Assembly (NCBI GenBank): GCA_036785375.1
Contig: JAWMAR010000085.1
Coordinates: forward strand, 7,688,001-7,752,000
Direction of reading: 5' to 3'
From: Leucoraja ocellata
Lineage: Eukaryota
Length of the DNA: 64,000 bases
The notes beneath the pieces are model-generated. The model made no database searches, was not told the origin of the DNA, and saw only the letters and a list, made by a program, of their open reading frames with translations. Made by a program: the position numbers and the translations under genes. Shown here one piece after another: positions 2,322-60,700 of the stretch. Position 1 is the stretch's first letter. Each line of letters opens with the position of its first letter.

Positions 2322-2349
2322 CTGAAGAAGGGTCTCAACCTGAAACGTC
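2322..2349 (+). ncRNA. Minimal hammerhead ribozyme motif
   Basis: CUGAAGA-A-GGGUCUCAACCU-GAAA-CG-UC. Confidence 0.6.
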
Positions 2350-3168
2350 ACCTATTCTTTTTTTCCAGAGATGCTGCCTGACCCACTGAGTTGCTCCAGC
2401 GTTTTGTGTCTATCAGTTATAGAGCAGTTATTGCAAGGATTTGCTGTATTGGATGAACCACTTTGGTGACGTACACTAGTGAGAGATTGAAGAGCGTTAA
2501 TGTTTTTTTTATTAGCTGACATCCGCATAAGGCAGGACTGACTAGTTCCTGTAAATTGCCCTCCGTCTGAGACGGCTGTCTGGTCCCACTGTCTATCCAA
2601 TTCCGTATGCTGGAGTAATGTCTTCTTTTGATGAATAGATTGTCATAATGACAGTAAATTGCTGCTCCAGCAATGACTTTTTTTCCCCAGCCCTTCTTGC
2701 AAAGGCAACACTACAATTAATGCTGTTACACAAAATTCTTTCTCGTTCTGGTAAACATAGCTGGAGGCTGGGTAAATTCCACACAATACTACGTATCAAG
2801 TGTTGGTTTTAGATTGTGCTCTTTGCGTAAGGAGTATTGGCATCTGTTACCAGAGTAGATGGGTGTACAGTAGCAACACAATGGAGCAGCGGGTAGAGCC
2901 ACTGCCTCACCACACCAGAGACCCAGGTTCGTTCCTGTCGGTGTGTGTGGAGTTTGCATGCTCTCCCAGTGACCACATAGGTTTACTCCTGATGCTCCGG
3001 CTTCCTCCCACCTCCCAAAGACGTGCAGGTTTGCTTTTCACAATGCAAATAGAACTGCAAGTAAAAATGTATTTGTTCTGTTTTGGTGCATATTGACTCT
3101 TGAACTAGTGTGAACAGGTGATCGCTGGCCAGTGTGGGGCCCGTTTCCTTGCTGTATCTCCAAACTAA

Positions 3169-3512
3169 ATAGATACATAGATACGTAGAAAATAGGTGCA
3201 GGAGTAGGCCATTCGGCCCTTCGAGCCTGCACCGCCATTCAATATGATCATTGCTGACCATCCAACTCGGTATCCCTTTAGCCACAAGGGCCACATCTAA
3301 CTAACTACCTCTTAAATATAGCCAATGAACTGGCCTCAACTACCCTCTGTGGCAGAGAGTTCCAGAGATTCACCACTCTCTGTGTGAAAAATGTTTTTCT
3401 CATCTTGGTCTTAAAGGATTTCCCCATTATCCTTAAGCTGTGACCCCTTGTCCTGGACTTCCCCAACATCGGGAACAATCTTCCTGCATCTAGCCTGTCC
3501 AACCCCTTAAGA
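3169..3512 (-). mobile_element. CR1 3' fragment; similar pieces at ~6742-6993, 11678-12110, 13672-13952, 14930-15350(+), 17590-18045, 21530-21965, 22900-23190, 26060-26380(+), 39013-39420, 48000-48500, 49710-49985(+), 54880-55230
   Basis: DRLDAGRLFP...SRTRGHSL...FFTQRVVNLWNSLP motif and conserved CR1 3' UTR. Confidence 0.85.
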
Positions 3513-5049
3513 TTAAAATGTAAATATCACTCTCTGAATCAGAATTATTAAAGGAAAGTCCAAAAGCTCAAGAAAATTCCACGCCCTTTGTTTGAAGGTG
3601 AGGAGGGCAAGATTTAACAGGAAACTGAGGGGCAACTTTGATTAGTACAGGTGACAGGAATTATGGGGAGAAGACTGTCAAGTGTCATGCTCGGTATTGG
3701 AAAGCAGCCAACAGCTTAGTCACTGTGTAGTAAGGAACTGCAGATGCTGGTTTACACTGAAGATAGACACAAAATGCTGGAGTAACTCAGCGGGTCAGGC
3801 AGCGTCTCTGGAGAAAAGGAATAGGTGATTTTGGGTCGAGATCCTTCCTCAGACTGAGAGTCAGGGGAGAGGGGAACTAGAAATATGAAGAGGTACAACC
3901 GTTTTGGCTCAATAACCTTCCTCGGGCTGAGAGAACTTTAGGCCGAAGGACTTGTTTCTGTTATTTTTAGTGCGTCTTAATGTATGTTTTAATGTTTTTC
4001 GGTATGTCTGATGTGGGGTGTTGCGGGGCGGTGGGGGGGATATAGGGGGAAACCGTTTTCAGTCACTTACCTCGACGGAGTTGCGACTTTTCTTCTTGTC
4101 GCATCTTCGTCCCCCTCACGGCCTAACACCTGGTTTGGTGCGGCCTCTCCAGACCAGAGACTGGCCCAGAACTTCGGCAGCAGGTGCAGTGCGGACTTAC
4201 CATCGCAGAGCCTGGGATCCCTTGCCGGGGATCGCCAGAAGAAGTGCTCCGACCGCTGGCGATCTTTAACATCATGAAGCCGCAGTCTCCGGTAAGAAGC
4301 GGCCGATTCAGGAACTCCAAGCCGCGGAGTGTGTTCTAATCCATCCCGATGTCGGAGTTTCGATCATCCCGACAAGAGGGCTTGTACATCGGGCCGTCCG
4401 TAACGGCGACTGCGGAGGGTCAAGGCTCCGACCACAGGTGAACAAAGGAGGAAGATTGACTGAATTTATCGCCTTCCATCACAGTGAGGAGTGCTGATTC
4501 CACTGTATGTCTGTATGTTAACTGAAATATCACTGTACCTTAATTTGTGCATGTGACAATAAATGTCAACTTGAACTTGAACTCTGTCTCTAAACTAAAC
4601 TAACTGCTGTGAATTTGGTGTTTGAACCGATTTGGGTGGAAGTTAAATCATGTTCTTCAAAGTGAAAGTTGAGTCGCTGCAGAAATGTAATCCTCCTGAC
4701 TGAAACTTGATCCCAGGCTCAGTTTAATTCAAACCCATCTGTCCTTAAAGGCAGAAAGAGCCGAGATATTTCAGTCAGCATTATTCTAATCCCAGCTGTG
4801 ATGCATAATGCTGTAAGACATTGCTGATGAAGCAAATGAACCTTAACCATTAACCTGTTTCATTTGCAGATGCTGATTGAGTATTATTTGACTTACACGA
4901 TTTTCTGCTTCTGTTTCAAGCTTACAATTTTTACTTTTGTTTAATGAAGATAATGGAGAATAGATAGGGTGAATCAGTGGGCCAAAGGACCTGTTTCCAC
5001 ATTGCATCTCTAAACTAAACTAAGAACTAAACAACAAGGTGGTGACCCT

Positions 5050-5810
5050 CATAAGTTCAAGGAGCAGAACTACGCCATTGACCCATCAAATCTACTCCAC
5101 CATTCAATCATGGCTGATCTATCTTTCCCTCTCAACCCCATTCCCCTGCCTTCTCCTCATAACCTCTGACACACGTACTAATCAAGAAATGTATCAATCG
5201 CCACCTTAAAAATATGCATCGACTTGGTCTACACAGCCATCTGTGGCAATTAATTCAACCAGATTCACCACCCTTTGATTAAAGAAAATGCTCCTTCTCT
5301 CCTTTCTAAAGGTACGTCCTTTTATTGTGAGACCATGGCCTATGTTCCTTGACTCTCCCACTAGTGGAAACATCCACATCCACTCTATCCAGGCCCTTCA
5401 CGATTTGGTAAGTTTCAATGAGGTGTCCCCTCATCCTTCTAAACTCCAGCGAGTACAGGCCCAATGCCTTCAAATGCTTCTCATACATTAATCCAATCAT
5501 TCCTGGGATCATTCTCGTAAACCCCCTCTTGTCCCTCTCCATCGCCAGCACATCCTTCCTCAGATACGGGGCCCAAAACTGCTCACAAATGTGGTCTGGC
5601 CAGTACTTTTTAAAGCCTCGGCGTTACAATCCTGTTTTTTTTTTTTGTATTTTAGCCCTCTTAAAATAAATGCTAATGTTGCATTTGCCTTCCATACTTC
5701 AACTTGCAAGTTCATTTTTTGGGAATCCTGCACTAGCACCCCTAGGTTCCTGTGCACCTCAGATTCCTGAATTCTCTCCCCATTTAGAAAATAGTCTATG
5801 CCTTTATTCC
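5050..5810 (-). mobile_element. CR1 3' fragment
   Basis: FTRMIPGM...LGLYSLEFRRMRG.LIETY plus CR1 3' UTR. Confidence 0.85.
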
Positions 5811-7563
5811 TTGGGGATGGGGCAAGGGGTGAGGAATGTACAGGTAGAAAAAATAAAATAAAGAATTGAGACCATTGAAGTGAAAATATTTATGGATATT
5901 TATTACCATCTCCTTTGCACTGAGGCAGATGCATCGCACATTTCACTGGTTTATGAAACGGCGATTTATCTCCATTCTAAATTGATTTGAAAATCCATTG
6001 AAACCTGGAACCGGCTGTAATGTAATGTATGTAACAGAATGATGCTTTTGTACAGACTCCAATTATTTGAAAGCCCAGATTTCCTAAGCTCATTAAAGAT
6101 TGTGTTTCCTACACAAAGAAATAAACAATCAGTTCTATATTGTTTTATAGAATAATTTGAAATCCTTTTAAATGTATTTGTCATACATTAATAGGTAAGT
6201 AAATAAATGCCATTGTCAGTGTATGTGGAGATTAAGTAATTTATTCAATGCCATCCCCTTAATTTGCACCGTTTGCCATTGGTGATTTGTGTGCACTGTG
6301 CCAACTGGTATAACGGCGCATCATGCAAAAATGAAAACGGTATCCAGGGTTGGAACTTTCACCAGTCAGTGAAGAGTCATGTTTAGTGTAGAGATACATC
6401 ATGGAAACAGGCCCTTTGGCCCATTGAGTCCACGCCGACCATTGATCACCCCTTCACACTAGTTCTGTTATCCCACTTTCTCACCCACTCCCTACACACT
6501 TAGGGTAATTTACAGCGCAAATTAACCGACAAACCTCACACGTCTTTGGGATGTGGGAGGAAACTGGAGCATCACAGAGCAGGCAAAGGGAGAACATGCA
6601 AACTGTACTCGCAGACAGCAACCAAGGTCAGGATCGAACCCGGGTCTCTCACGCTGTGAGGCAGTGGCTCTACCCGGTGTGCCACTGTGCCACTGTTGTC
6701 CCGTGTAACTGGAGGAACGAAACCCATTATTAGAAACAAAGAAGCATAGAAAATAGGTGCATCAGGCCATTTGGCCCTTCAAGCCAGCACCGCCATTCAA
6801 TGTGATCATGGCTGATCATCCACAATCAGTAATCGGTGCCTGCCTTCTCCCCATATCCCTTGATTCCGCTAGCCCCTTGAGCTCTATCTAACTCTCTTTT
6901 AAATCCATTAAAGGCCTCCACTGCCTTCTGTGACAAGTGCACAACTCTCTGGGTGAAAAAAAAATATTTTTTCTCATCTCAGTTTTAAATGGCCACACAC
7001 GCACACACCCAACTCGCAGGCTCAGCTAGAGAGGGGGCAGGAGCAGAGGGAGGGCGGGGGCGGCAGAGTGGGAGGGGGTAGAGTTTGAGGGGCGGGAAGG
7101 GGACATGCAGCGCCACAGGGGAGGGCTAGTTCCCGAACGCAATATTCCCTCATTCCAGCTCCTGCTCCAGGCGCCAGAGCGAGGCCAGGGAGTGGGGAGA
7201 TTGTTCAGCTTTGGTCTTCAGTCCACAGCCTGACTTGCTCGTTCTTTGTGTGTCTCTTTTGAGTAACGAGGTGGGGGGGGGGGGCGTCACTCGCTGCACT
7301 TGGAAGAAGGCAGGCACGGAGATCCATTGTGATGTCATCAGCGAGATTCCGGCGTTTTTTTACAGATTTTTGTACATTTTCATTAATAACTGGAGAAATA
7401 AAGGATGAATTTTTCAGGTAAGGCGATTTTGGACTCCAGGGGGAATATCTCCACCAGAACATGCAAAAGTGTAATCATTAGCGCGTCATTTTTTCAAGAA
7501 GATGTGATTATACACAAACAAATAAACACACATCCAAGATCAGAGGTTTAAGCATATAAGATA

Positions 7564-8512
7564 TGTTTCTATAAGACCCCTTCTCTGCAAATTTGCTAGT
7601 GTCACTTTTAATTCGATCATCTAAATCATTAATATACTGTAAATAGTTGCGCCCTCAGCACCGAGCCTTGCAGCACTTCACTCGCCACTGCCTGCCATTT
7701 TGATAGGGACCGGTTTATTCCTACTTTTTGTTTCCTGTCTGCCAACCAATTCTCTATCCATATTAATACCCTACCCCCAATACCATGTGCTCTAATTTTG
7801 CCCACTAATCTCCTGTGTTGGTCCTTATCAAGGGCTTTCTGAAAGTCCAAATACACCACATCCACTGGCTTTCCTTCATACATTTTACTTGTTTCATCCT
7901 CAAAAAATTCAAGAAGGAGTGCTGGCTCGAAGGGCCAAATGGCCTACTCCTGCACCTGTTGTCTATTAGTCAAGCATGATTTCCCGTTCATAAATCCATA
8001 CTGACTTGGACCAATCCTTTTACTGCCATCCAAATGCGCCATTATTACTTCTTTAATAATTGACTCTTCCCCACCACAGATGTCAGGCTAGCTGGTCTAT
8101 AATTCCACGTTTTCTCTCTCGCTCCGTTCTTGAAAAGTGGGATAACATTAGCTACCCTCCAATCCACAGGAACTGATCCTGAATCGAGAGAACATTGTAA
8201 AATTATCACCAATTAGTCCACAATTTCTAGAGCCACCTCCTTGAGTACCCTGGGATGCAGACCATCAGGCCCTGGGGAATTATCAGCCTTCAGTCCCATC
8301 AGTCTACCCAATATTATTTCTTGCCTAATGCAAATTTCTTTCAGTTCCTCTGTCTCCCTAGATCCTCTGTCCTCTAGTACATCTGGGAGATTGTTTGTGT
8401 CTTTCTTGGTGAAGACAGAACCAAAGTACCTGTTCAACTCTTCTGCCATTTCCTTGTTCCCCATAATAATTTCACCTGTTTCTGCCTTCAAGGGACCCAC
8501 ATTTACTAATCT
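7564..8512 (-). mobile_element. CR1 ORF2 RT fragment
   Basis: ORFs 8213-8500 (SPGPDGLHPRVLKE) and 7629-7883 (VDVVYLDFQKA...QGSVL) are near-copies of the long CR1. Confidence 0.88.
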
Positions 8513-10053
8513 TTTCCCCCCAGATATGTAGCATTTACGAAGCTTTTAGAGAGGCACTTGGATATGTAGGGGATGCAGGCATATGGATCAGGTGAAGGCA
8601 GAGGAGTGTAGGAAGACACTGCAGATGCTGGTTTAACCCGAAGATAGATAGACACAAAAAGCTGGAGTAATCCAGTGGGTCAGACAGCATCTCTGGAGAA
8701 AAGGAATAGGTGACGGAATGGGTCAAGACCCTTCTTCAGACTGAGAGTCAGGGGAAAGGGAAACGAGGGGATTGGTTTATCTTGGCTTCATGTTGGGCAT
8801 GGATATTGTGGGCTGAAGGGCCTGTTCCTGTGCTGTACTGTTCTATGGACTATCGATCTATCTATGGCGTTCACTTCAACTCGGGATTGAGTGGTGCCAT
8901 CTGCTTCATGATGTCCTGGTGCTGTGTTAGCCATTCGTCATGATGCAGTTTCACTCATAAGTAAACTAAGCGGATGAGCAGTCTTCTCCTAGCATGAAAG
9001 AAAGAACACAATACATAACAGAATTCAACATAAAACATAAACATCCACCACAGTTGAACCAGCAACTCCCGCTGTAGTGGAAGACACAAAAGTTCACTCA
9101 ATCTTCCTCCTCCATTCACCCGTGGTTGGGGCCTTGAACCCTCCGCAGTCGCCGCTACGGAAGGCACGATGTACAGGCCCTCTCGCCAGGGTGATCGAAA
9201 CTCCGACGTCGGGACGGGGACGGATGGGAACACTCCGCGGCGTGGAATTCCTTAATCGGCCGCTTCCTACTGGAGACCGCGGCTTCATGATGCCAAGACC
9301 ACAGGCCCCGCGGTCGGAGCACTTCTTCTGGTGATCCTTGGCAAAGGATCGCAGGCCGCTCCGCGATGTTACAAGTCCGCGCAGGGCCCGCGGCTAGAAG
9401 CTCCACAGATCGAGCTCCACGATGGTAAAGTCAGCAGGCCCCCCGAGGTCGGAGCTCCAACACTGGCGACCCCTGGCAAAGGATCACAGCTCCGCGATGT
9501 CAATGTCCTGCAGAAGCTCTGGGTTCTGGGCTGGTCTCCGGTCGGAAAGGCCACACCAATCCAGTCGTTAGGCTGCGAGAGGGGCGAAAATGGGACATGG
9601 AGAAAAGTCACATCTCCATCGAGGTAATTGCCTGGGAACGGTTTCCCCTATTCCCCCCCCCCCCCCCCCCCCCCCTCTCTCAGCACCCCCCACACCGGGA
9701 GACATACATTCAGACACACTGAAAACAACAAAAAGTCCAAAGAAACACACGAGCTGCTAGCGAGGCTGCCGCGAGTGGCACCATCTTGGGAAATTTGGAC
9801 CGCTGGTCCTGAAATGCCCAGAAACCAGTTGCTGCGTCCCTCTGTGTAAGGTACAACTATTTCTGGGTTGTGCATAAGCCTGTCTATTTGGCAACATCAG
9901 ATATTCTTAAATATGTTTATAACTCTTGATTTTCATGTTGTGAGTGTCTGGGTTACTTATACATTCACATGTGAATGATTCAGATAGTCAAAGGATGTGA
10001 TGACATCAGTGTTGGCAGCATTACATGTTTGTGGATCTTGCAGTTGGAGTAAA

Positions 10054-10325
10054 GGCACAGTGGCGCGGCGGGTAGAGCCACTCCCTCACAAAGCCAGAGA
10101 CCCGAGTTCGATCCTGACCTCAGGTGCTGTCTGCGTGTGTGGAGTTTGCACCTTCTCCCCGTGACCGCGTGGGTTTCCTCCGGGTGCTCCGGTTTCCTCC
10201 TACCTCACAAAGACGTGCAGGTTTGTAGGTAAATTGCCTTCTGTAAATTGCCCCTAGTGTGATCGATGGTCAGCACTGACTCAGTGGGCGGAAGGGCCTG
10301 TTTCCATGTTATATCTCTAAACTAA
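10054..10325 (+). mobile_element. tRNA-derived SINE. Other + strand copies at ~2873-3167, 10970-11262, 18486-18770, 23527-23840, 25343-25610, 26480-26775, 27728-27982, 46461-46787, 56411-56600, 57845-58035
   Basis: GGCACAGTGGCGC...GGTAGAG...GTTCGATCCTGAC head, same core and CR1-type tail as above. Confidence 0.88.
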
Positions 10326-10770
10326 TACGCAATTATCTTTGTTATATCCACTACATTGTGAAAACGTATGAAAATAATGTTATAGATTTTGCCTTTTATG
10401 AATTTGGATCATATCCCAAGGGAGTATTTTGAGTTGTGCACTGATCTATTGACATAGTAGTAAAATATATCGGGTTCAACATCATTTACGTTAGCTATTT
10501 GATGGCACAGTGTATAGTACAAGGAGATGTGTAGAACAACTCGTGCACTGTTGACACAAGGAACTGCAGTTGCTGGTTCACAATCACAGACACAAAGTGC
10601 TCGAGTAACTTGGCGGGTTAGGCAACGTCTCTGGAGAACATGGGATAGGTGACGTTTCGAATTGGGATCCATTGTTGGGGCCTGGAAGGTTATGAATGGT
10701 GATGTCTTTAGGGCTTTGGTCTTTGCTACGAGAATTAAAAATAAGCAGTTTGTATATTGTGGTAGAACTG

Positions 10771-10968
10771 TGCAGGAAGGAACTGCAGACGCTAGTTTAA
10801 ACCGAAGATAGACATAAAATGCTGGAGTGACAGCTGAACAGGCAGCATCTCTGGAGAGAAGGAATGGGTGACGCTTCGGTTAGAGTAGGGTCTCAACCCG
10901 AAAAGTCACCCATTCCTTCTCTCCAGAGATGCTGCCTGTCCTGCTGAGTTACTCCAGCATTTTTTGTC
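10771..10968. mobile_element. Palindromic Penelope-terminus element with 13-bp TSD. Related palindromes at ~12655-12845, 16565-16800, 23893-24075, 29823-30040, 37361-37540
   Basis: Inverted arms (CAAAATGCTGGAG...CAGGCAGCATCTCTGGAGA...GGTGAC and its reverse complement), flanked by TGTGGTAGAACTG at 10758-70 and 10969-81. Confidence 0.8.
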
Positions 10969-13900
10969 TGTGGTAGAACTGCTGCCTCTCAGCGCTGGAG
11001 ACCCGGGTTCGATCCTGACCTCAGGTGCTAACTGTGTGGAGTTTGCATGTTCTCGCTGTGACCTTGTGGGTTTCCTCCGGGTGCTCCAGTTTCCTCCCTA
11101 TCCCACAGACGTGTGAGTTTGTCGATTAATTGGCCTCTGTAAATTGTTCCTAGCATGTAGGGAGTGGATGAGAAAGTGGGATAACAGAGTTAGTGTGAAT
11201 GGGTGATCGATGGTTAGAGTGGGCTGAAGTGCCTGTTTCCATGCTGTATCTTTTGATCAATCAAACATTCCTCCAACAGTTGTCATTTGTGGCTTGTGAA
11301 AGTTTTTGGGGGTATTTAACTAAGTTAAAGACACTATAAATGCAAATTGCTATTATGACACATTAATTTAAATAATCATCATCTTTGCTCAATTGTATAA
11401 TGGTAAATGATTAGGATATGCAAAATTTTGGGGCTAAATTTGCATAACATGCCATTTATGTATAATTACATATCAGATCACTTAACATCTGAATGTGCAA
11501 AAGATGTTATGATATTTACACTTCATTACCACTTGATCCTGCAAAAATATAAAACTGATCGAAAAACCCCTCCTGTGGCTGCTTCCGTTAAAATAAAGAT
11601 AATTTAATGATAACTGATCCACTCAGATAGATTCTGACCATTACGCTGATATTAGGAATTCCTTTATTGCAATACCATAGAACAGTACAACACATGAACA
11701 GGCCCTTCGGCCCACAATGCCTGTACTCAACATGATGTCTCATTAAACTAATCTCTGCCTGCACGTGTTCCATATCTCTCCATTCCCTGCATATCCATGT
11801 GCATATCCAAAAGTCTCCGAAACACCACTATTGTATCTGCCTCCACCACCACCCCTGGAAGCATGTTCCACGCACCCACCACTGTCTGTATATTAAAAAA
11901 AAGTAATTGCCACACATATCTCCTTTAAACTTTGCCCCTCTTATCTTAAAGCTATGCCCTCTCGTCTTTGACATTTCTACCCCGGTAAAAAAGCTTTGAC
12001 TATCTGCCTTTATCCATGCCTCTCATCACATTATATACTTCCATCAGGTCTCCCCTCAACCTCCCACACTCCAGAGAAAGCAATCCAACGTCTCCTTGTA
12101 GCTAACCCAGGCAGTATTCAGGTTAGACTTTACTTCAGACTTTAGAGATACAGCGCGGAAACCGGTCCACCGAGTCCGCGCCGACTAGCAGTCACCCCGT
12201 ACACTAGCCCTACATACTAGGGACAATTTACAGAAGCCAATTAACCTGCAGACCTGCATGTCTTTGGAGTGTGGGGGGAAACCGGAGTACCCGGAGAAAA
12301 CCCACACAGTCGAGGAGAACATACAAACTCCGCACAGACAACATCCGTAGTCTGGATTGAACCTGCGTCTCTGGTGCTGTAAGGCAACAACTCGACCACT
12401 GTACTACTGTACCACCTGTTTTGTTAGTCTCTTCTGGACCCTCTCCTACACACTCGGACAATTTACAGAAGCCAATTAACTTACAACCCAGCACGCCTTC
12501 AGGATGTGTGAGGAACCCCTCAAGGTCACAGGGAGAACGGGCAAACTCCGCACACAGACCACATCCGAGGTCAGGATCGAACCTGGGCCTCTGCTGCTGT
12601 AAGGCAGCAACTCTACTGCTGCGCCATTGTGCCGCACAACAGATATGTAAACATAGGCACAAAATGCTGGAGTAACTCAGTGGGTCAGGCAGCATCTTTG
12701 GAGAAAACGGATAGGATGACTATTCTTTCAAAGGGCCCCAGTCTATCCACATTCTCCAGCGATACTGCCTGACCCACTGAGTTACTCCAGTACTTTGTAT
12801 CTATCTTTGGTATAAACCAACATCTGCAGTTCCTTTTTATTACAAGCTGTCCCTGAATCGGGACGTTTCACGTTTCAGGCTCCTCTACCTTCTTCCCAAT
12901 GGCAGGGGTGAAATGAGAGTGTGGCCCCCGTAACCCTCTTTATGAGGCAGCAACTCCTCAATTGTGATTTCTGGACTACTTTATATGAATAATATTGACA
13001 GTGTGGGGATCATATAGTCAAGCTGCTGCTCTTGTTCAGAGCACTGGATGATCTACACTTTCTCACGATCGGGTTAGGAATGATAAATAACACAAATGGC
13101 TTTTGCCGTGGTAATCGGAATTAGTCAAATGCTGGTTGCATGAAATCCAGTCAGCTGGTTGCTATGGTGAGCAACAACTGGCAGCAGCTGGGAAGACGGT
13201 CAAGAGAGCTTATAGTTGTCATATACACCGGCCGGATATGAAGCAGAGCAATGACATCCTTACTTGCCGCAGCTTCACAAGCACATTAGATGTAACAAAC
13301 AGCAACGATAAATGTGCAATAAATGATCAGTTTTTCAAAGTAAACTAAATCATGAAAGTGCAAGGATCAAAGTATATAGAGTAACCATTGTAGTGCAAAG
13401 TTATTTGTGTTGAGTTTGGATTGTGTTGGGTTGTGTAAGGTTGATTCAGATTCAGATTCAATTTAATTGTCATTGTCAGTGTACAGTACAGAGACAACGA
13501 AATGCATTTTCTTGAATGCATTTTGATGCTGTTCTTGAACCTGATGGTCATGGTTCTCGGACTCCTGTACCTTCTTCCTCTTGGTAGCAGCGAGCAGAGA
13601 GGGTGGTCATGGTGGTGTGAGTCCTTGCTATCAGCTGCCATCTTGAGGCAGCATTTGCTGCAGTTCCTTTCATAAGTTCACAAGTTATAGGAGCAGAATT
13701 AGGCCATTCGGCCCATCCAGTCTACTCCGCCTTGCAATCATGGCTGATCTATCATTTCCTCTCAAGCCCATTCTCCTGCCTTCTCCCCGTAACTCCCGCA
13801 TTCTAGTCCTTGGAAATAAATGCTAGCATTGCATTTGCCTTCCTTACTACCGATTCGACTTGCAAATTAACTTATTGGGAATCCTGCACCTGCATTTTCC

Positions 13901-45560: not shown

Positions 45561-45722
45561 TTTAACCCATAAAAAAGGGGTTTATAATTTGTGTTAATAA
45601 ATTTCATGGATTTTAATATCGGATCATGTCTAAATTATGTTAACACAATTCCTCCTGCAGTAAATAAGGCAGATGTGAGGCATGGACTCGTTTCCAGGGC
45701 ATGAAATCACAGAGCTTTGAAA

Positions 45723-45830
45723 TCTTCACGTAGTCACTCACGTGACTCCGAAGTAAAATAGTAAGATTAAACGAGAACTTACCAGTTCGAAGTTTGATCA
45801 TTATTTTATGAGGAGTACGTTGAGGGAATA
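45723..45830. repeat. DIRS internal complementary region (ICR)
   Basis: 45723-45758 is the exact reverse complement of 40761-40796. 45759-45830 is the exact reverse complement of 45975-46046. Together they spell the circle junction. Confidence 0.95.
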
Positions 45831-48800: not shown

Positions 48801-50100
48801 CATCCTGCCCAAGATCACATTGCCTGTTATTTAACTGAGGAAATTGATAGCTGGTACACTTCGCTTTAGTTTAGAGACACAGCAAGGCAACGGGTCCTTC
48901 AGCCCGAGTCTATGCTGACCATAGATCACCCGTTCAAACTAGTTCCATATTCTCCCATTTTCTCATTCACTTTTCTACACACTAGGAGCATTTTCACAAC
49001 AGGCAATTAGCCTTTTGTAGGTTAATTCGCTTCTGCAAATTGCCCTTAATGTGTATGAAGTGGGTGCAAAAGTGGGATAGCATAGAACTTGTGTGAATAG
49101 GTTGATTGATGATTGGCATGGATTTGGTGATGAAAAACTACAACCGCTAAACCTGCACGTCTTTGGGATGTGGGAGGAAAGCAGAGCACCAGTCACAGGG
49201 AGAACGTGCAAACTCTACACATGGACAGCACCCGAGGTTAGGATCAAACCCGGGTCTCTGGTGCTGTGAGGCAGCAACTCTACCAGCTGTGTCATTGTGT
49301 CACCACACAGTGGAACGGTACCGAGAATACAAATTTGTATATGACCCTCCAGCATTTTGTGTCTATCTTTGGTATAAATCAGCATCTGCAGTCCCTTGTT
49401 ATTACATTTTGATACATTTTTTGAGCTGTTTCTCTCCGGTTCTGTAGCATTATCTTATTTTGGCCTTAACCTTACAAATTGCTGCTGTTTCTGGTATATA
49501 TTGTTTGTTGGCTGCTTTTTGAATTGACCCCTGAAGATTCCACAGAAGCACGGTTAGGCTGAATGCTAATAAAGTTTGAGCTTTGGTGGGAAGTTAACTT
49601 CACATCATCATCCAAAAAGGATATTAAGAAACATTGCTTTTCACTATTTTTTCAATTGGTAGAGTTAAATATTGTTGTTTTCTGTATTTTATAGTGTAGA
49701 GATTATTTATAACAATGTTGCCAGGACTTGAGGGTCTGAGCTGTAGGGTGAGGTTGGGCAGACCAGGATTCGATTCCTTGGAGCACAGGAGGATGAGGAG
49801 TGATTTGCAGAAGTGTATACAAATCATGAGAGGAATAGATAGGGTGAATGCTTAGTCTTATACACAGGGTTGGGGAATAAAGAACCAGAAGTAGGTTTAA
49901 GGTGAGAGGGGAATGATTTAATAGGAACCCGAGAGGCAACCTTTTCACACAGAGGGTGGTGGGTATATGGAAAGAGCTGCCAGAACGTTCCTTCAGCACT
50001 GTGTTTTGTTCAAGATTCCAGCACCTGCAGTTCCTTGCGTGTCTCTACATACCCACACGTAGGAATCACTGGGTTCCTGCCGACTCCGGTAAATAGCAGC

Positions 50101-53100
50101 AGACATAAAAACATAGAAACATAGAAAATAGTGCACCTTCGAGTCAGCACCGCCATTCATTGTGATCATGGCTGATCATCCCCTATCAATAACCCGTGCC
50201 TGCCTTCTCGCTTTGTCCCTTGACTCCACTAGCCCCTAGAGCTCTATCTAACTCTCTCTTAAATCCATCCAGTGACTTAGCCTCCACTGCCCTCTGTGGC
50301 AGGGAATTCTATAAATTCACAACTCTGGGTGAAAAAGTTTTTTCATACCTCAGCCTTAAATGACCTCCCCTTTATTCTAAGACTATGGCCCCTGGTTCTG
50401 GACTCGCCCAACATTGGGAACATTTTTCCTGCATCTAGCTTGTCCAGTCCTTTTATAATTTTATATGTTTCTATAAGATTCCCCCTCATCCTTCTAAACT
50501 CCAGTGAATACAAGCCTAGTTTTTTCAATCTGTCTTCATATGACAGTCCCGCCATCCCAGGGATCAGTCTCGTGAACCTCTTCACTCCTATACTGAAATC
50601 CTCTTGTTATGAAGACCAACATTCCATTGGCTTTCTTCACTGCCTGCTGTACCTGTAAGCCAACTTTCAGTGACCCCCAGGTCACACTGCACCTCCCCCT
50701 TACCAAACCTAAACCCATTGAGATAATAATCTGTCCCCTTGTTTATGCAGCCAAAGTGGATAACCTCACATTTATCTATATTATACTGCATCTGCCACGC
50801 ATCTGCCCACTCACTCAACCTGTCCAGGTCACCCTGCAACCTCCTAACATCCTCTTCACAGCTCACACTGCCACCCAGCTTTGTGTCATCCGTAAACCTG
50901 CTAGTGTTGCTCCTAATTCCATCTTCCAAATCATTAATATATATGGTAAACAGTTGCGGCCCCAACACCGAGCCTTGCAGCAGTCCACTCGCCACTGCCT
51001 GCCATTCTGAAAAGGACCCGTTCACTACTACTCTGCTTCCGGTCTGCCAACCAATTTTCTATCCATGACAACACCCTACCCCCAATACTATGTGCTTTAA
51101 TTTTAGTCACCAGTCTCCCGTGCGGGACCTTATCAAAGGCTTTCTGAAAGTCTAGATACACTACATCCACTGGCATCCCTTCATCCATTTTACATGTCAC
51201 GTCCTCAAAAAATTCCAGAAGATTAGTCAAGCATGATTTCCGTTTCATAAATCCATGTTGACTTGGACTAATCCTTTTACTGCTATCCAAATGCCCCATT
51301 ATTACCTCTTTAATAATTGACTCCAGCATCTTTCCCACCACCGAGGTCAGGCTAATTGGTCTGTAATTCCCCGTTTTCTCTCTCGCTCCTTTCTTGAAAG
51401 TGGGATAACATATCCTCCAATCCACAGGAACTGATCCTGAATCTATTGAACATTGGAAAATGATCACCAATGCATCCGCTATATCTAGACCTCCCTGAAG
51501 ACCCTGGGATGCAGACCATCAGGCCCAGGGGATTTATCATCCTTCAGTCCCATTAGCCTACCCAATACTATTTCTTGCCTAATCAAAAAATATTTCAGTC
51601 CCTCTACCCCCTTAGATCCTCTATCCTCCAGTAAATCAGGGAGATTGTTTGTGTCTTCCTTAGCGAAGACAGATTTGAAGTACCTATTTAACTCTTCAGC
51701 CATTTCCTTGTTGCCCATAATAATTTCTCCTGACTTTGCTACTCTTTTTCCCTTAACATATCTAAATAAACTTTTACTGTCCTTCTTTATATTCCTGGCC
51801 AGCTTCCCTTCGTACTACATCTTTTCAGCCTGTACTGCCCGTTTTGTTTCCTTCTGTTGTCCTAAGAAAGTTTCATAGAAACATAGAAACATAGAAATTA
51901 GGTGCAGGAGTAGGCCATTCGGCCCTTCGAGCCTGCACCGCCATTCAATATGATCATGGCTGATCATCCAACTCAGTATCCAATACCTGCCTTCTCTCCA
52001 TACCCCCTGATCCCCTTAGCCACAAGGGCCACATCTAACTCCCTCTTAAATATATTCCCAATCCTCTGGCTTCCGGCTACTCTTTGCTGAGTTATCCATC
52101 TTTTCTTTTAGTTTTATTCTATCCCTAACTTCTCTTGTCAGCCACGGTTGCCTCCTACTCCCCTTAGAATCTTTCGTCCTTTTTGGAATGAAATGATCCT
52201 GCGTCTTCCGGATTATGCCCAGAAATTCCTGCCATTGTTGTTCCACCGTCATTCCTGCTAGGATCCCTTTCCAGTCTACCTTGGCCAGCTCCCCTCTCAT
52301 GCCTTCATAGTCCCCTTTGTTCAACTGCATCACTGACACTTCCGATTTAACGTTCTCCTTCTCAAATTGCAGATTAAAACTAATCATATTATGATCACTA
52401 CCTCCAAGCGGTTCCTTTACCTCGAGTTCTCTTATCATATCTGGTTCATTGGACAACACTAAATCCAGAATTGCCTTTTCTCTGGTCGGCTCCATTACAA
52501 GCTGCTATAAGAATCCATCTCGGAGGCATTCTATAAACTCTCTTTCTTGGGGTCCTGAACCAACCTGATTTTCCCAGTCTACCTGCATATTGAAATCCCC
52601 ATCACCACAGTGGCATTACCTTTGTTACATGCCAGTTTTAACTCCTGCTGCAACTTACACCCTACATCCGGGCTGCTATTTGGGGGTCTATAGGTAACAC
52701 CAATTAGTGTCTTCTTGCCTTTATAATTCCTCAACTCAATCCACAGTGACTCTACCTCGTCAGGCCCTATGTCTTCTCTCGCAAGGGACTAAATTCCATC
52801 CCAGCAGAGCTACCCCCCACCCCTCCTCTGCCCACCTGCCTGTCCTTTCTATAGGATGTATAACACTGCATATTAAGTTCCCAGGTACGATCCTCCTGCA
52901 GCCACATCTCAGTAATCCCCACAATGTCATATCTACCAACCTCTAACTGAGCCTCAATCTCAACTACTTTACTTCTTATACTTCGCGCATTCATATACAA
53001 TACTTTTAATTCCTTACGCATCTCACCTTTCACATCGATCCCTATTACACTTGGCCATACTCTCCTATGCCTTTGTGAGCTTCCTTTCCTGTTATTTCTG

Positions 53101-54148
53101 GGGTCATTAAGCATGCATTTGCTCTCTTTCCCTTTAACTCCATCCTCGACTATCCCATTTAACACCCCATCCCCCTTATTCAGTTTAAAACCACCCGTGT
53201 AGCAATGGCAAACCTGCCTGCCAGAATGCTGGTCCCCCACCTGTTAAGATGCAATCGTCCCTTTTGTACCGTTCCCCCTTACTCCAAAACAGACACTTTC
53301 GCCAGCACGAGGAACTGGAAGCAAACCAGAGATAACAATCCTGTAGGTCCTGCTTTACAGCATTTTCCGAGCTCTCTAAAGTCATGCTGCAGAATATTCA
53401 TCCCCCTTTTTCCGACATCATTTGTGCCGACATGCACAACACTTCTGCCGGCTGTTCACCTTCGCCCTTGAGGATTTTCTGCACTCTGTCCGTGACATCC
53501 TGGATCCTGGCACCAGGAAGGCAGCACACCATCTTTGTCCTCGAATCCCATCTGTTCCTGCAGAAACCCCTGTCCGTACCTCTCACAATGGAGTCTCCAA
53601 CTACAATGGCATTGACTGACGTTGGCCTCTTTGGTTTTGGCTCAACAGCCCTTTTTGCTTCGCAAGCCAGTTTGCCGCTCAGTGTGATAACGTCTTCTGT
53701 CCCGACAGCTTTTAAGTGGATGAACCTGTTCACAAGAGGTACAACACCCGTGGACGTTTGCATTCCATGTTTCCCTCCCTTTCTCACTGTCACCCACCTT
53801 CTCTCTTCCAGTACCTTAGGTGTAACAATCTTACTGTAGGACTTGTCGAGGAACGACTCCGTTTCTCGGACGAACCTGAGATCAACCACTTCTCCAGTTC
53901 CCCAACACGGTCCTTCAGGAGCTACACCTGGATGCACTTCTCACATTTGTAGCAGCCAGAGGCACTAGCAGTGTCCTTGACCTTCCGCATACTGCAAGCA
54001 TCACACGGAATTAGCTTGCTTGACATCTCCTTCTTTCGTCTCTCCCTCTCCAGCCTTTTACATAGCCTCCTCTCCTCAGCCGAAGACTCTGGAGCCAAAG
54101 ACTCGCACTTTTCTCACAGGGCACTTCCCTCACAAGGCCGCTCCCTCA
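50101..54148 (-). mobile_element. Near full-length CR1-type LINE (degenerate)
   Basis: ORF1 starts MSSKLIPCDAC (~54026), with a Cys-rich finger and SGNH esterase motifs (VVGDSIVRG, VCCLPGARI). ORF2 has APE motifs (LYMNARSI, GITEMWL, PTREKAILDLV, GSDH) and RT motifs (NYRPISLTS, YLDFQKAFD, QGSVLGP, FTDDTK). (TTTCTATG)n 3' tail near 50101-50130. Confidence 0.92.
51875..52032 (-). mobile_element. CR1 3'-end fragment nested in the long CR1
   Basis: A second (CATAGAAA)n tail and 3' UTR interrupt ORF2, which resumes afterwards. Boundaries approximate. Confidence 0.75.
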
Positions 54149-55485
54149 CTCCCTCACTCAGACCCTCAAGTCCTGGCAACATCGTCATAAATCATCTCCG
54201 CATTCTTTCCACCGTAGTCAAGTCATGTATTTCTTTATCAACATGTATTGATAACGGTACAATCAAATGTATATGTGATGCAGCTTTACAGGCCCACAAA
54301 CACAAGAACACACACATAATGTCCAATAATAGTAATACAATAAATGAATGATCAGTAAAACTGGGACATACAGTCAGTGAGTCATAGTCATGCAGTCAAT
54401 GTGCAAACAACCTTGGGTGCTGTCTGTACGGAGTTTGCACATTGTCACATTTGCACTTTGTATCATATTTGTAAACCAACAACTGCAGTTTCATGTTTCT
54501 ACATTTTGTCCCCTCCCCCCCCCCCCCCCACCTCTCCCACACAATCAGTCAGAAAAAGGATTTTGACCTAAAACATCACCTATCCATGTTCTCTAGACAT
54601 GCTGCCGGACCCACTGTGTTACACCAGCACTTTGTGTCATTTTCTTGTAAGCCAGCATCTGCAGTTCCTTGTTTCTGCAGATAATCCGGTTGTTTTGATG
54701 CATCGCTGAATGCTGTATCTGACTTCATCATTTTGTGTATAAACAAGATGTTAAGTGTCAAATCTCGAGAACAGCTCACTCTAAATCAAAGGACCTGATT
54801 GTAATGAGTCCAATCTACACTGATAAATGCTAATTCACCACGAGGCAGCTCCTCTAAGTTTGTAGAGGCAGAGTCATATCACTCTAAACTTGTCCTATCC
54901 TGTCTAAACGTTTCTTAAACTTTGCAATAGTACCAGCCTCAACTACCTCTGGCAGCTCGTTCTATGCGCCCACCACCCTTTGTGTAAAAAAAGTTACCCT
55001 CGGGTTCCTATTAAATCTTCCCCCCCCCCCCCACCTTTACCTTAAACCTATGTCCTTTGATTCTCGATTCCCATACTCTGGGCAAGAGACTCTGTGCGTT
55101 TACCTAGTCTATTCTCTCATGATTTTATACACCCCGATACGATCAACCCTCATCCTCCTGTGCTCCAAGGAATAGAATTCTAGCCTGCTCTACCTCCCTC
55201 TCAGGCCCTCGAGTTCTGACAACATCTTTCCAATTAGAATGGTGACTGTACAAGATGAATTTATAATGTTGTTAAAGCCTTAGCGATGTGTTAGAGGCCA
55301 CGATCTACTGTCAAGATGAAAGGCAGACTCAGAGCATTCGCTGCTTCTGTCGCAGAAATGGTACAAACCCTTCAGGCAAGATTTATGTGTGAGCATTCAG
55401 AGGTTGATAACTGAGCGGCGCTGCTCTATGTTTAGTTTCATGGGGAGTGCATCTTGCTGACTGGCTAATTGTGGATATGCACTGA

Positions 55486-56230
55486 GTGGTGCCATCAGCG
55501 ATGGCAGCCTCGCCAACGGTCTGTCTGTCTTTTCGGCTTCTTTGTTATTTTTAAGTGTGTTTTAAAAGTATGTGTTAACATTCTCTGGTTTGTTTTATGT
55601 GAGGGGGGGTCGGGGGAAACATTTTTCAATCTCCTACCTTGCTGGAGATGCGATTGTTTTCTGGACTGTATCTCCGGTCGCTTTGCGGCCTAACGTCATG
55701 GATCTGGCAGCCTTGCTCGAGACTGACTTTGAGCCCCACCGCGGGGCCGTGGATTTATCATTGGAGCCTGCGATCCCTTGCCTGGGATCGACGCTCCAAC
55801 CGCGGCCTGCGGATTTCAACATTGAGGAGCTTGCAGTCTCGGGTAGAGACCGATGTCGGGAAGCTCCAAAGTCGTAGGAGGTTTGTCCAACCCCGACCCG
55901 GGGTCCGATCGCCCGGCGCGGGGAGTTGAGATCCCCCCGATGGGAGAGCTCGACCGCCCCGACGTGGATCGCTCGACTACCGGCTACGGGAGCCAAGATC
56001 GCCACGACAACGGGAAGTTCAAGTGTCCCGACCGCGGGAGAACAAAGAATTGAACTTGTTTTGCCTTCTATCACAGTGAAGAATATGGGGGAGTCACTGT
56101 GGTGGATGTTCATGTTAAAACTTTGTTTGGGAGTCTTGTTGATCTTTATTGATGTGACTGTATGACAAATCAAATTTCTCGTATATTGCAAAACATACAT
56201 GGCTAATAGGGTGCTATTATGATTATGATG
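55486..56230 (+). mobile_element. CpG-rich non-coding retroposon (unclassified). Relatives at ~3950-4582(+), 8990-9790(-), 21270-21445(-), 56603-57000(-), 62778-63145(+)
   Basis: Shared 5' TGGTGCCA...GGCAGCCTCGC, GGGGGAAAC block, CCTTCCATCACAGTGA...TCACTGTGGTGGATGTT stem-loop, and 3' hexamer repeats (GATTAT/GATTCT/ACTTGA)n. Confidence 0.7.
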
Positions 56231-57377
56231 AAAGCTGTGCAGGTCAAGAGTATTTAATTGTTGTATTCACTGAAAAGAGAACAATGAAACTGGTACTTAC
56301 TGGAGGTTTACAGGCCTGTATATGCAAAAGCACACAGATAAATAGAAAACAATCAATAATGTAACAGATTATTAACATGGATAGGTGATGTTTAGGGCCC
56401 GACGAAGGGTGCCACAGTGGCGCAGCAGTAGAATTGCTGCCTTACAACACCAGAGGCCTGGGTTCGATCCTGACTACGGGTGCTATTTGTACAGAGTTTG
56501 TACGTTCTCCCTGTGTCCGCGTGGGTAATCTCCGGGTGCTCCAGTTTCTTCCCACATTCGAAAGATGTACAGATTTGTAGGTCAATTGTAAATTGTCCCT
56601 AAATCGTAATCATAATCATACTTTATTAGCTATGTATGTTTTGCAACATACGAGGAAATTGATTTGCCATACAGTCATACCAATAAAAAGCAACAGAACA
56701 CACAAAATACGTTTTAACATAAACATCCACCACAGTGACTCCTCCACATTGCTCACTGTGATGGAAGGCGAAAAAAAAGTTAAATCTGTTAACTTCTTTG
56801 TTATCCTGTGTCGGGGGCCTCGAGCCTTCTGTTGTCAGGGCGATCTTGGTTCCCGTAGCCGGTGGTCGAGCCTTCTGCATCGGGGCGATCAAGCTCCCGC
56901 ATCAGGAGGATCTCAGCTCCCCCACGCTGGATGATCGGACCGCGGGTCGGGGCAAGTCGAACCGCTTGGAACTTTGGGGCTTCCCGACATCAGTCTCTAA
57001 CCAAGACTGTTAAATTGTTAATTATTAAAGCAGAGATTGCCAGATTCTTGATTAGTAAGAGTGTCAAAGGTTACAGGGTGAAGGCAGGAGGATGAGGTTG
57101 AGAGATAGATCACCCATCATTGAAGGGCAGAGTAGACTCGATGGGCCGAATGGCCTAATCCTGCTCCTGTGACTTATGAACTTACTCCAGCACTTTTTGT
57201 ATTAACCAGTATCTACAACATTTATTTCTGAATTATTATCAGTATCACCAGGCAACAAAAGCTTTTTACTGTACCTCGGTATACGAGACAATACACTAAA
57301 CTTATAATTCAAAAACCGAAGTCCAGGGCAATTTTTTTTACATAGAGGGTGGTGAGTGCCTGGTACGCACTGCCAAG

Positions 57378-57772
57378 CAAAGGTCCTATAGCAAGCAAGA
57401 TAGACCACTCCTTCTAAATGCAATGGGCTGACTTGTAGTACGCAACGTACGGAACTTGGACCATTTTTTCAACCATTTCAGTAACCCGCCCCGACCCGAC
57501 TCTCAGTGTAATCAACGTTGCGGGTGAACAGTTTGTGTTAATAAATTATAATTCTGAATATGAGGAGAGTATTTTTCCCAAATAACTTTTATTTTTACGA
57601 GGATGTTTCCGTAACCGGCTTCCGGCCCCACACTAGTATCCTATGGGACCTTTGGTGCGGAGACGGAAGCCGGTTACGGAAATGGGGCCCCGAAAATTAC
57701 CCATGAATCTGCCCATGACCGTACTACGTCTTTTTCGTCGAGTGATCTATCTTGCTTGCTATAGGATCTTTG
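57378..57772. mobile_element. MITE with 8-bp TSD (P-element or hAT superfamily)
   Basis: 33-bp TIR CAAAG.TCCTATAGCAAGCAAGATAGA.CACTC (2 mismatches), TSD CTGCCAAG (57370-77, 57773-80), inserted in a CR1 fragment. Confidence 0.85.
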
Positions 57773-60700
57773 CTGCCAAGGGTGGTTATGGCTAACTGAA
57801 AGTCTTTTAAAGACCACTAACGTATCTGCTTCAACCATCATCCCTGGTTTCCTCCTACATCCCACAGACATGAAGGTTTGTATGTTAATTGGCCCCCTGT
57901 AAATTGCCCCTAGTGTGTATGGAGTGGATGAAAGGAAGCGGAATAACATAGAATTAGTGTGAACGGGTTGTCAATGGTCGGCAAGGACTCGTTTGGTGTA
58001 AGTGCCTGTTTCCATGTTGTATTTTGCAATCAATCAATATTGAATTGTAAAGGAAAGTCTTGAGTGCGCCAGTCAAGCTTTCTTCCCCCACCCTGGCAAT
58101 CAGTCAAAAGAAGGTCCTGGCCAGAACCGTCACTTATCCATGTTGTCCAGAGATGCTGCCTGACTATCTGAGTTACACCAACATTTATGGGTTTTTTTTG
58201 ACTGGGCCAAAGATAGACACAAAGTGCTGGAGTAACTCAGCGGGTCAGGCAGCATCTCTGGAGAAAAGTAATAGGGGATGCTTAGGGTTGGGACCCTTCT
58301 TCTGACTAAAAGATAGAGGTGGCGGGAGGGGGAGGGAAGAGAGGGACTGGAGGCAAGAAAAGGCCAGAACCAGAGCCGGCTACACATGCCCTCAGGAAGG
58401 GTGGAGTCCATAATGGCCCATTGTTGGCTGGGGAAGATGTGCTGACTACAGGGATGCGAATAGTGGAACTACTAAACTGGTTAGTCAAAAAAGAAATCCG
58501 AAATAGGTGCAAATGTGAATGGAAATTTGACTGAAACGCTGAACTAATCATTCTGAATAGATAAATCACCTAGATTTTGGACTACTACAAATTGCAGCAA
58601 CCATCAAAAACAAATAATAATCCTTTAATCAAAATTTTGGATTGTTTACAGGCCCTCATTAAGTCAAACTAGAAAGATGCATAGTCTGAGAATAAGAAGC
58701 TGTCGTTTGGGTAATAACTCTCCTGCTTTTGTGTGTACTAATGAAACTATTGGCCAGATTTAGCTTCTGGGGAAGGTGATTATGCAAATTGTGTTGTCTT
58801 TCGTAATAAAGCATCAAGCCTCTCAACGCCTTCATTAGCGAGGTTCCAAGAAGCTGAAGGAAGTAGCATAATATCCATCTCCTCCCAGGCAAAGAGTACC
58901 AATTATTGTCCACTATCACTAACTACGTGTGTTCAGTCGAGAATTTAGACATTAAAGCTTTTCCAAAATGGAGCCATATTTTTTTTTCTCCTTAAAATGT
59001 GCTTTCAGTTGCTCACATGACAACCCACCCTTTATCAACCTAAATCGCCTCCAATTCACTTAAACTTTAGACTTTAGAGACACAGCATGGAAACAGGCCC
59101 TTCGGCCCACCGAGTCCTGCGCTATCCATTATGCATTATAGCGTCACCTATCCATGTTCTCCAGAAATGCTGCCTGACCAGCTGAGTTACTGCTGCACTT
59201 TGTGTCCATTTCAGTATTCAGTATTTCTTTAATATCATTTTCACTGAGTACTCGCATACACCAAGGAAACAAAAAAACGTTGCTCGATCAGTTTCCATTC
59301 AGTGTAGTTAATAAAAAAGGGTAAATACATAGAGCTTTAAAACAAATTAAAATTACCGTCTAAAAACAGAAAGTAGGCCTAAAATTTCCAATAGAATAAA
59401 AACAGACATTCCGACCAACAGTGGCTTTACTTTGACAGGTGCCTAACTGTCAAAGTATGGACGAGGTTGAATGTGTATTCAATGAATATTTAATCTATTC
59501 TGTTCTAAATCTTTCCATGAAGGTATGAAAGTAATTATCTAATAAATAACCACATTGGTACATTGCAATATAATGGTTCATACTGTCTTGTCCATAATGC
59601 CAGCAGAAATTTCTACTTCAGAATATGAATGCTTTCATTTAATGTTTTTGCCAAGCTCGGTTTGCCAAAAAAAAACTTATTTCATGCCTGTGCTATTATT
59701 GTTATATTAATCAGCTACATTACCACAAACTAACAGTGAGTTATAATTGGGATTACAGGTTAGCCTGTTAATAACAATCTCAAAATGTTCACCTGTGACT
59801 GCCTGTCTGGCAGTCTTTTCATCTTCATCCTTGTGGACGTAACAGCCTGTGTGGTTATATCTTTGTTACCATTTGTGTCTTATGTGTTGTTTGAGTTGTT
59901 TCTCGTATGTGGAGCAAGTCATATGTGCGGCCAGTTATTCTGTGGCTCAGAAATACTTTTAACAAACAAATGGAGATTATATCTATTGTTCCCCATCCTT
60001 TCTTTACACACCCCGCAAGTTTTTTGTAACGTACAGCGATCAAAATACAGATGTGCCACACTATAACTTCCTTCTTTGTCCTTTCCACCTCGTTCTTTCG
60101 TAAATTTACCCAAATGTATTCACCCTGATGGAATACTCACTTGTTTATGAAATGAGCCATAAAATTAAACATTATATGTGGAGAATGCATTGTAAATTGG
60201 GTAGGCTTCTTCGAGTGTTGATCTGCATTTGAGACATCCTTTAAAGGTGTACTTACAGAAGTCGAAGGTTGTTATGAGAGGATTAAAGGTATTGTTTTAA
60301 AAAATTAAAGCTTGATCCTCATTTCCAAATAATTTGGGGTTAGACAGCAGATCTATGATAAAAGCATAGACTAGATGAACAGCATGAACCTCTGTTACAT
60401 AAACATCAGGGTAGCACTGTAACACGTTATCCATTTATACACGCCTGCTCTGTTGGCTTCTATTAATCAATGTGTATAGCAGATGCATTGTGTGGCTTCA
60501 AAGTCCCCTGAGTGCCACATAGAGCTCTCTCTCTCTCTCACTCTCTCTGCATCCATTTATCTGAGAACTGTCATCTGTGCAGTCCCTGGTTTTAATTGCA
60601 ACGTGATGTACAACACTGTGGAATGTAGTCAGCACTCAGCCGGTATGAAGTAGGCGACAACCCTGTGGCATTATCAGTAATGTTCTTCCAAAAACCGTCG

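Follow-up and report, generated by a model that had tools for sequence, protein, structure and literature searches.

Hammerhead motifs in the introns of a skate IGSF3-like gene are very probably decaying terminal repeats of a Penelope-like retrotransposon

Terminal repeats of Penelope-like elements (PLEs) that carry minimal hammerhead ribozymes are already known to litter fish and amphibian genomes. For the Poseidon element PAc of Anolis carolinensis, the sections of the report available to us describe unprocessed RNA as the main template, find the cut site free of RNA-seq ends, and mention no genomic excess of copies starting there (PMC11167929). Cartilaginous fishes are not mentioned in the accessible sections of the survey of minimal type-I PLE hammerheads, whose supplement may list shark or skate motifs (PMC4209133). 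The literature on PLE hammerheads, in the parts at our disposal, calls their role unclear, and we found no in vivo cleavage evidence in it. Here we analyze a stretch of 64,000 nucleotides (nt) from the skate Leucoraja ocellata (assembly GCA_036785375.1, contig JAWMAR010000085.1, positions 7,688,001 to 7,752,000, forward strand; hereafter the window), in which a preliminary description had reported about 20 minimal hammerhead motifs scattered through the introns of IGSF3. These motifs are very probably the hammerhead-bearing terminal repeats (pseudo long terminal repeats, pLTRs) of a PLE of the Neptune/Nematis type, left as short 5'-truncated insertions that decay in step with their flanks and likely leave IGSF3 pre-mRNA uncut.

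The motif makes up the 5' part of an interspersed repeat unit of 95-135 nt, which we call a stub. A search with the 31-nt motif at up to three mismatches recovered three sites in the window (2322 on the plus strand, 18133 on the plus strand and 20925-20955 on the minus strand) against none in 100 shuffles, and no window copy matched it exactly. A seed profile gave 51 matches, fragments included. A second profile, built from long genomic copies and applied at a cut-off score of at least 25, gave 41 copies, 21 on the plus strand and 20 on the minus strand, showing that the initial figure of about 20 was too low. Relative to the IGSF3-like gene, which runs on the plus strand, 21 copies are thus sense and 20 of the 41 antisense. 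An Rfam scan returned no hammerhead family at E ≤ 10; its matches to microRNA families were hairpin-driven, scored below the gathering thresholds, fell in several cases on head-to-head pairs, and were set aside. When a relaxed hammerhead scan was run over 1.44 Mb, every motif found belonged to the PLE family.

Complete units identify the parent of this family. In the two units recovered (L100 and L101), a terminal repeat is followed by one open reading frame (ORF) and a second terminal repeat; the motif is present in both repeats, at motif-to-motif distances of 3,934 and 3,902 nt, and the ORFs are 1,241 and 1,202 amino acids (aa) long, with a likely start codon about 165 nt after core position C3. 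The ORF carries DKG, YIDD and YIGET motifs and a CX4CxxC zinc finger in the linker between reverse transcriptase (RT) and endonuclease (EN; residues 1108-1116 of the L100 ORF). Its Pfam matches to RVT_1 and GIY-YIG were weak, under the curated cut-offs, and its 3,073 homologues include many annotated as RVT_1 with or without GIY-YIG. By this linker, and following the available part of Craig et al. (10.1101/2021.04.23.441226), the element would belong to Neptune and Nematis taken jointly. Upstream of the longer copies lies a pyrimidine-rich tract, which follows the final part of a GIY-YIG reading frame. For the subfamily found in the window, the loci displayed run from the coding end through a pyrimidine-rich untranslated region (UTR) to the motif, and 20 of 30 loci align to the C-terminus of the element protein, a share that is partly by construction given that the loci were picked on a coding-end motif. 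The kinship with minimal type-I PLE hammerheads, noted in the preliminary description, is borne out by the motifs in both repeats of full RT-GIY-YIG elements and by the junction of the window's subfamily with the GIY-YIG end. Copies of a younger sister subfamily are 99% identical to each other. Exact marker matches number 15,546 genome-wide for the motif as first described and 75,800 for the young subfamily. The assembly also holds near-identical second copies of this locus (L002) and of other regions; because of these duplicated stretches, the marker counts exceed the number of independent loci.

The architecture of the motif was read from majority lines of the subfamilies. These show CUGAAGA, an extra A, a 4-bp stem II, GAAA, CGU, then C or U, and a 2-bp stem I, and the first parse (CUGANGA / stem II / GAAA / ACGU / H with a 2-bp stem I) is correct for them. 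The core CUGANGA / GAAA / UH is present in six of seven group majority lines. An unpaired base between 9 and 10.1 and the G10.1-C11.1 pair are also present. The palindromic positions 15.2-16.2 (ACGU) of the majorities would permit an intermolecular helix III, the dimer being predicted to be unfavorable. Helix I consists of 2 bp (U-A or U-G, and G-C) followed by an A-C mismatch, and folding finds no longer helix. Six well-decoded majority lines differ only at tolerant positions (loop 2, 11.4, H17 and 1.1); the changes between subfamilies are one-sided, compatible with pairing, and keep both the fold and the NUH rule, with no two-sided change among them. This pattern suggests that the master elements are under constraint on the hammerhead. 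In the young subfamily, a UUCG loop (L101:2237-2252) is nearly complementary to the GAAAC core, and an alternative hairpin or symmetric duplex that hides the catalytic GAAA (G12-A15.1) is predicted; such a hairpin could be an off state.

Among the 41 inserted copies of the window, all 12 core positions are present in exactly the four named at the outset (C3 at 2322 on the plus strand, 20955 on the minus strand, 31403 on the minus strand and 40507 on the plus strand; the second and third were first listed by their low ends, 20928 and 31376). Each of the four has a stem defect, and two of them are antisense. The best sense candidate (2321..2418, plus strand) keeps the 12 core bases and the ACGU palindrome, with a G10.1-U11.1 pair closing stem II and a stem I of 1 bp only. 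The other sense stub (40503..40613, plus strand) has a stem II of 3 bp, AUGU instead of ACGU and a stem I of 2 bp. On the minus strand, antisense to the gene, the stub at 20862..20958 has an A-C mismatch within stem II, and the tailed stub at 31287..31445 combines an A10.1-C11.1 mismatch with a non-palindromic ACAU and no stem I.

The ends of the stubs, many of which carry target duplications, inform on how they arose. Their 3' ends fall at two preferred positions, one including a tail of about 36 nt and one lacking it; because 3' ends are bimodal in the 1.44 Mb sampled, the tail is optional. Head-to-head partners accompany 242 of 637 copies in the same sample, and tail-to-tail partners 50. 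Target duplications of young stubs measure 7-14 nt as judged by eye. The main 5' start of stubs lies about 2-4 nt before the core. More specifically, among 98 young copies (selected through a marker that lies downstream of the ribozyme, and including some assembly duplicates), 34 reach far upstream and 53 start at -8 to +11 relative to C3, 14 of them at -2. Among 351 non-inverted copies of all ages there are 15.3 starts per nt at -6 to -1 compared with 0.7-4.2 from +6 onward, and genome-wide, starts at -2 gave 5,130 matches, or about 10,000 after filter correction. The window holds an example at 18131..18233 (plus strand), which begins 2 nt before C3, has lost G12 to CpG decay and is flanked by a possible 8-nt target duplication. 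G is in excess at -3 (42 of 100 by hand count, p = 0.009). A splice-acceptor-like pyrimidine tract and AG immediately precede helix I in the skate element, and a spliced leader was considered and rejected: no upstream exon was common to the flanks of 30 copies starting at -2, inverted partners aside, and no such joint was seen among those listed in the RNA runs. In three copies (L285, L295 and L313), the 5' junction repeats or omits short pieces of the 5' purine tract of the hammerhead, which suggests that the template was jumped during insertion.

These ends suggest that the template RNA has its 5' terminus just upstream of the hammerhead, at the initiator-like sequence TCAGTC. Element RNA would start there, RT would prime internally, 95-135 nt downstream, and run off the RNA 5' end to leave a stub, and priming on the downstream repeat would give the longer, variably truncated copies. 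The hammerhead would be kept intact in the master lineages, where folding would need the element protein and a partner copy, and would cut only a small share of the template RNAs. Once inserted, the motif would be carried along as a passenger, with most losses arising at the CpGs C11.1-G12 and C15.2-G16.2. Internal priming by RT has been demonstrated in vitro for the anole element, according to the portion of that study available (PMC11167929).

The same ends could be taken to mean that stubs are an independent SINE-like (short interspersed element) or retrozyme family, which would replicate by way of short transcripts or circles. Defined ends on both the 5' and the 3' side, target duplications and one copy that joins the tail directly to the cut site (L326) speak for such a family. 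Against it, stubs share the diagnostic bases of the long copies of their own subfamily and grade into them, the window copies are dispersed or inverted without tandem arrays, and units of the retrozyme type should begin at the cut site, while most stubs start about 30 nt before it. We therefore regard an independent family as improbable and retain the reading of stubs as truncated insertions of the PLE.

After insertion the copies decay neutrally. The preliminary description had looked to a core better kept than its flanks and to covarying stems as marks of a working ribozyme, and neither was found among the copies. Across 147 copies of family A, retention at non-CpG core positions is 0.91, compared with 0.89 in the downstream flank, so that, judged across copies, the core is not kept beyond its flanks as a domesticated intronic hammerhead would require. 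G12, which lies within a CpG, is retained at 0.63, as for a CpG outside the ribozyme (63%/67%), in agreement with the early suggestion that GAAA is lost through CpG decay. The covariation score among copies was 0.160, a value reached by 490 of 500 shuffles and below the shuffled mean, in an alignment of 19 distinct rows with 17 window copies and the young form among them, and one window row that was collapsed or misaligned leaves this result as it is. A metagenome scan for distant relatives that might have extended this alignment gave six weak matches, which were not used. From its sequence record, the inserted motif appears to be under no constraint.

If intact sense copies cut their host transcripts, such copies are expected to be depleted in introns. 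We compared orientations in IGSF3 and 60 further stretches (L156-L215) anchored on dynein and myosin exons. Copies in genes were 198 sense versus 172 antisense overall, 46 versus 30 for those with a full core, and 22 versus 10 for structurally complete motifs (95% interval of the sense share, 0.50-0.84). Intact sense copies are thus not depleted in these genes, and the comparison bounds the host cost: intact sense copies in introns show no sign of being selected against.

Taken together, a core that decays like its flanks, the lack of covariation and the lack of sense depletion in genes make cleavage of IGSF3 pre-mRNA unlikely; window copies are probably inactive there, as judged from these patterns. 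The proposal put forward at the outset, that sense copies cleave this pre-mRNA or pair into active dimers, finds core-complete motifs in only 2 of 21 sense copies of the window (2322 and 40507), with weak stems and 38 kb between them. That such copies cut enough pre-mRNA to matter, alone or as dimers, is in our judgment highly improbable. It draws on these two full cores and on more in intron 1, on a lean of intact cores toward the sense strand that is readable as retention, and on the weak in vitro cleavage of minimal PLE hammerheads as dimers, as given in the accessible text of PMC4209133. Set against it are stems I of 1-2 bp, the neutral decay of copies and predicted dimer energies: the active dimer is 12-18 kcal/mol less stable than other dimers, for the 2322 copy -1.7 to +4.1 versus -14.4 kcal/mol, and the predicted fold of that copy is no better than shuffles. 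In addition, the anole PLE hammerhead is inactive without the element protein (PMC11167929, in the part available). RNA data, possibly from another skate species, were searched as well (four raw runs on one element unit, and two runs and two contig sets on window positions 28500-41500). No pile-up of read starts or ends was seen at cut sites, which is weak evidence from oligo-dT or single-cell libraries with heavy multi-mapping, and one spliced IGSF3 contig joins 32241 to 36630 across an intron that holds two sense copies, both with broken cores.

Pairing of copies with each other is predicted to be mainly sense with antisense, as long hairpins, and this is the most likely pairing in IGSF3 pre-mRNA; such hairpins would bury the hammerhead motif. 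Seven head-to-head pairs were found in the window. Flanking duplications were seen at 10769..10977 (13 nt), 23872..24079 (9 nt) and 29822..30061 (9 nt), the last ending about 100 nt upstream of the acceptor region of an IGSF3 exon, where it might affect editing or splicing. The pair at 12649..12839 is without the hammerhead part, that at 15797..15952 is older and more diverged, and a further pair occupies 16568..16798. For the pair at 37359..37562, the predicted hairpin reaches -112 kcal/mol (z = -15.8).

Several observations pull away from the view of inert, truncated PLE repeats. For the older subfamily, to which most window copies belong, no full-length member was recovered, the complete elements all coming from the younger sister subfamily, and one group of seven old copies has a broken core in its majority line. 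The 2322 copy retains core, stem II and palindrome, and folding energies leave out the tertiary contacts of the core. Several target duplications overlap the first 2-4 bases of the copy, and the same start peak could arise where RT prefers to stop, or from microhomology at the 5' junction. In the orientation test, one Pfam exon match per stretch set the gene strand, and flanks of 10 kb were taken to be intragenic by assumption; intact cores lean sense, 23 versus 9 (p = 0.02, uncorrected; 10 versus 2 in the young subfamily), a lean for which strand-biased CpG decay is only a borderline cause (p = 0.067).

The young subfamily, 99% identical over tens of thousands of copies, makes insertion ends countable, and the predicted cut site (+28) was considered in this light. 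A strong peak there in a first set (3 of 30 rows) shrank in the 98 young copies to four rows, representing two events. We then counted young copies with mismatches at all four bases upstream, using patterns that differ slightly in their 3' ends. Raw start counts were 112 at +24, 143 at +26, 333 at +28, 89 at +29 and 180 at +32, and 388, 454, 1,515, 634 and 523, respectively, after filter correction (the +26 value by hand division with the printed filter factor). Starts at the cut site are thus about 2.4-3.9 times commoner than at the four neighboring positions, and inverted junctions or deletions are many among the matches at every position. At +28 we read 20 of the first 32 matches listed, leaving out two analyzed earlier, six with ATAG, two with TTCG and two duplicates; as controls, 10 matches each at +24 and +32 were read, obvious duplicates left out. 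By our own reading, clean, non-inverted insertions with target duplications made up 6 of 20 at +28 versus 0 of 20 controls (p = 0.02), or 7 of 32 when the skipped rows are counted (p = 0.035). The signal is modest and post hoc; it hints at a small share of ribozyme-cut templates, and junction chemistry could also yield it.

One tentative interpretation, possible although we lean against it, is that the skate hammerhead, with its 2-bp helix I, cuts in the germ line and that the genome records both RNA ends: a large class, about 10,000 young copies after filter correction, would run to the uncut start 2-3 nt before the core, and a small class of several hundred clean insertions would begin exactly at the cut site. 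If true, a minimal PLE hammerhead would have left fossil evidence of its cleavage in vivo, with the cut RNA still copied into the genome, and the role of PLE hammerheads would be addressed by the step in starts at this site, should that step be confirmed. Somewhat unlikely in our view is the opposite account, in which master elements keep the motif mainly because it forms part of a protein-binding site or an internal promoter where the RNA starts, catalysis in this lineage is vestigial and the cut-site excess reflects junction chemistry (a GC/GGCC palindrome, microhomology). The 2-bp stem I and the predicted hairpin over G12-A15.1 in the young subfamily fit vestigial catalysis, as does the resemblance of about half or more of the cut-site matches listed to internal deletions or inverted junctions; in vitro, the anole element also still inserts when its hammerhead is mutated, as stated in the part of PMC11167929 available. 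It accords poorly with the preservation of fold and NUH rule in every subfamily-level change, with the 6 of 20 clean cut-site copies versus 0 of 20 controls, and with two of these copies (L322 and L324) that have neither added bases nor visible microhomology. In two further joints, the tail of an upstream unit (L326) or sequence from the ORF start (L134) meets the cut site directly, by what could be a template switch or ligated RNA.

Turning to the setting, the host gene was named IGSF3 from the start, and its best protein match is indeed the IGSF3-like protein of Leucoraja erinacea (99% identity). In window coordinates its coding exons span -62286 to 79511 on the plus strand (first coding exon at -62286, last at 79257-79511), so that the entire window (1..64000) is intragenic and all copies are intronic. 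Within it, coding exons were placed at 30166..30594 (an Ig domain, ends approximate), 31845..32241 (spliced to 36630 in one assembled RNA contig), 36630..37030 and 39590..40033 (ends approximate), all on the plus strand. Copy density is 97 in 142 kb for the IGSF3 gene, 165 in 400 kb for the dynein loci and 108 in 200 kb for the myosin loci; IGSF3 is at most modestly denser, and its tie to the motif appears incidental.

Further stubs of the window are decayed. On the minus strand they lie at 327..483 (with the pyrimidine-rich UTR upstream), 3723..3892 (UTR and tail, G12 lost), 8606..8769 (UTR and tail, GAAA lost) and 37611..37893 (two stubs in the same direction). Plus-strand examples are a partial stub at 27011..27093 (G12 lost), a tailed one at 31052..31167 (G8 and G12 lost), and those at 33074..33158, 35217..35374 (A14 lost) and 54522..54675 (UTR and tail); two more stand tail to tail at 58080..58347. 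A remnant of the GIY-YIG coding end (37112..37140, plus strand) encodes the peptide GMNIDFSSFR before a stop. Other repeats share these introns. At 42530-46048 (plus strand) lies a fairly intact retroelement with an RT frame at 43197-44507 (Pfam RVT_1), a next frame at 44700-45236 without a Pfam match, which by its look we take to be a tyrosine recombinase, and an inverted repeat (78 nt, 99%) at 45757-46048; it is likely of the DIRS type. A broken long interspersed element (LINE) at 50100-53940 (minus strand), with RT pieces (RVT_1 at 50588-51518) and upstream frames that presumably encode an endonuclease and an esterase-type ORF1, is likely of the CR1/L2 type. Further abundant families stand amid the PLE stubs (2884-3076, 10063-10268, 26482-26672 and others; D2, D7, D9 and D20), and resemble tRNA-headed SINEs and LINE tails.

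We finally compared the skate element with described systems, each through the part of the source available to us. With the minimal type-I hammerheads of PLEs (PMC4209133) it shares the core, the extra base between 9 and 10.1, the G10.1-C11.1 pair and the palindromic 15.2-16.2, together with the location in both repeats and the occurrence mostly as dispersed single truncated copies and opposite-strand pairs. Its helices are shorter than those of the Schistosoma PLE hammerhead (helix II of 4 bp versus 7-8, helix I of 2 bp versus 4-5; PMC4209133), and its copies are far more numerous than the 4,000-9,000 motifs reported from coelacanth and Xenopus, the counting method being different (PMC4209133). 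A 2-bp helix I preceded by a pyrimidine tract and AG is common to the skate element and Penelope of Drosophila virilis (PMC2377424, PMC4209133), whereas the former gave no sign of the spliced leader in the 30 flanks at -2 (PMC2377424). Non-LTR retrozymes (10.64898/2026.07.22.740005) likewise have a type-I hammerhead, an origin from PLE terminal repeats and presence in a chondrichthyan; they form tandem arrays with a hammerhead per unit, whereas the skate window holds solo or head-to-head stubs. PAc belongs to a different clade and its ORF starts inside the hammerhead, unlike the skate ORF with its start codon downstream of the motif, yet both have two RT start sites that set the tail (PMC11167929). 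In coding capacity the skate element resembles the EN-containing PLEs of the Neptune/Nematis type, with a single ORF, RT, a CX2-5CxxC linker and GIY-YIG at the C-terminus (10.1101/2021.04.23.441226, PMC3846280), the skate ORF being long, at about 1,200 aa, with a proline-rich N-terminal part. These elements also share partial tandems, an inverted 5'-truncated neighbor, a 30-40-nt tail, target duplications and the head-to-head excess (PMC3846280), and the insertion pattern of the skate stubs is the one described for PLEs (PMC3846280, PMC11167929).

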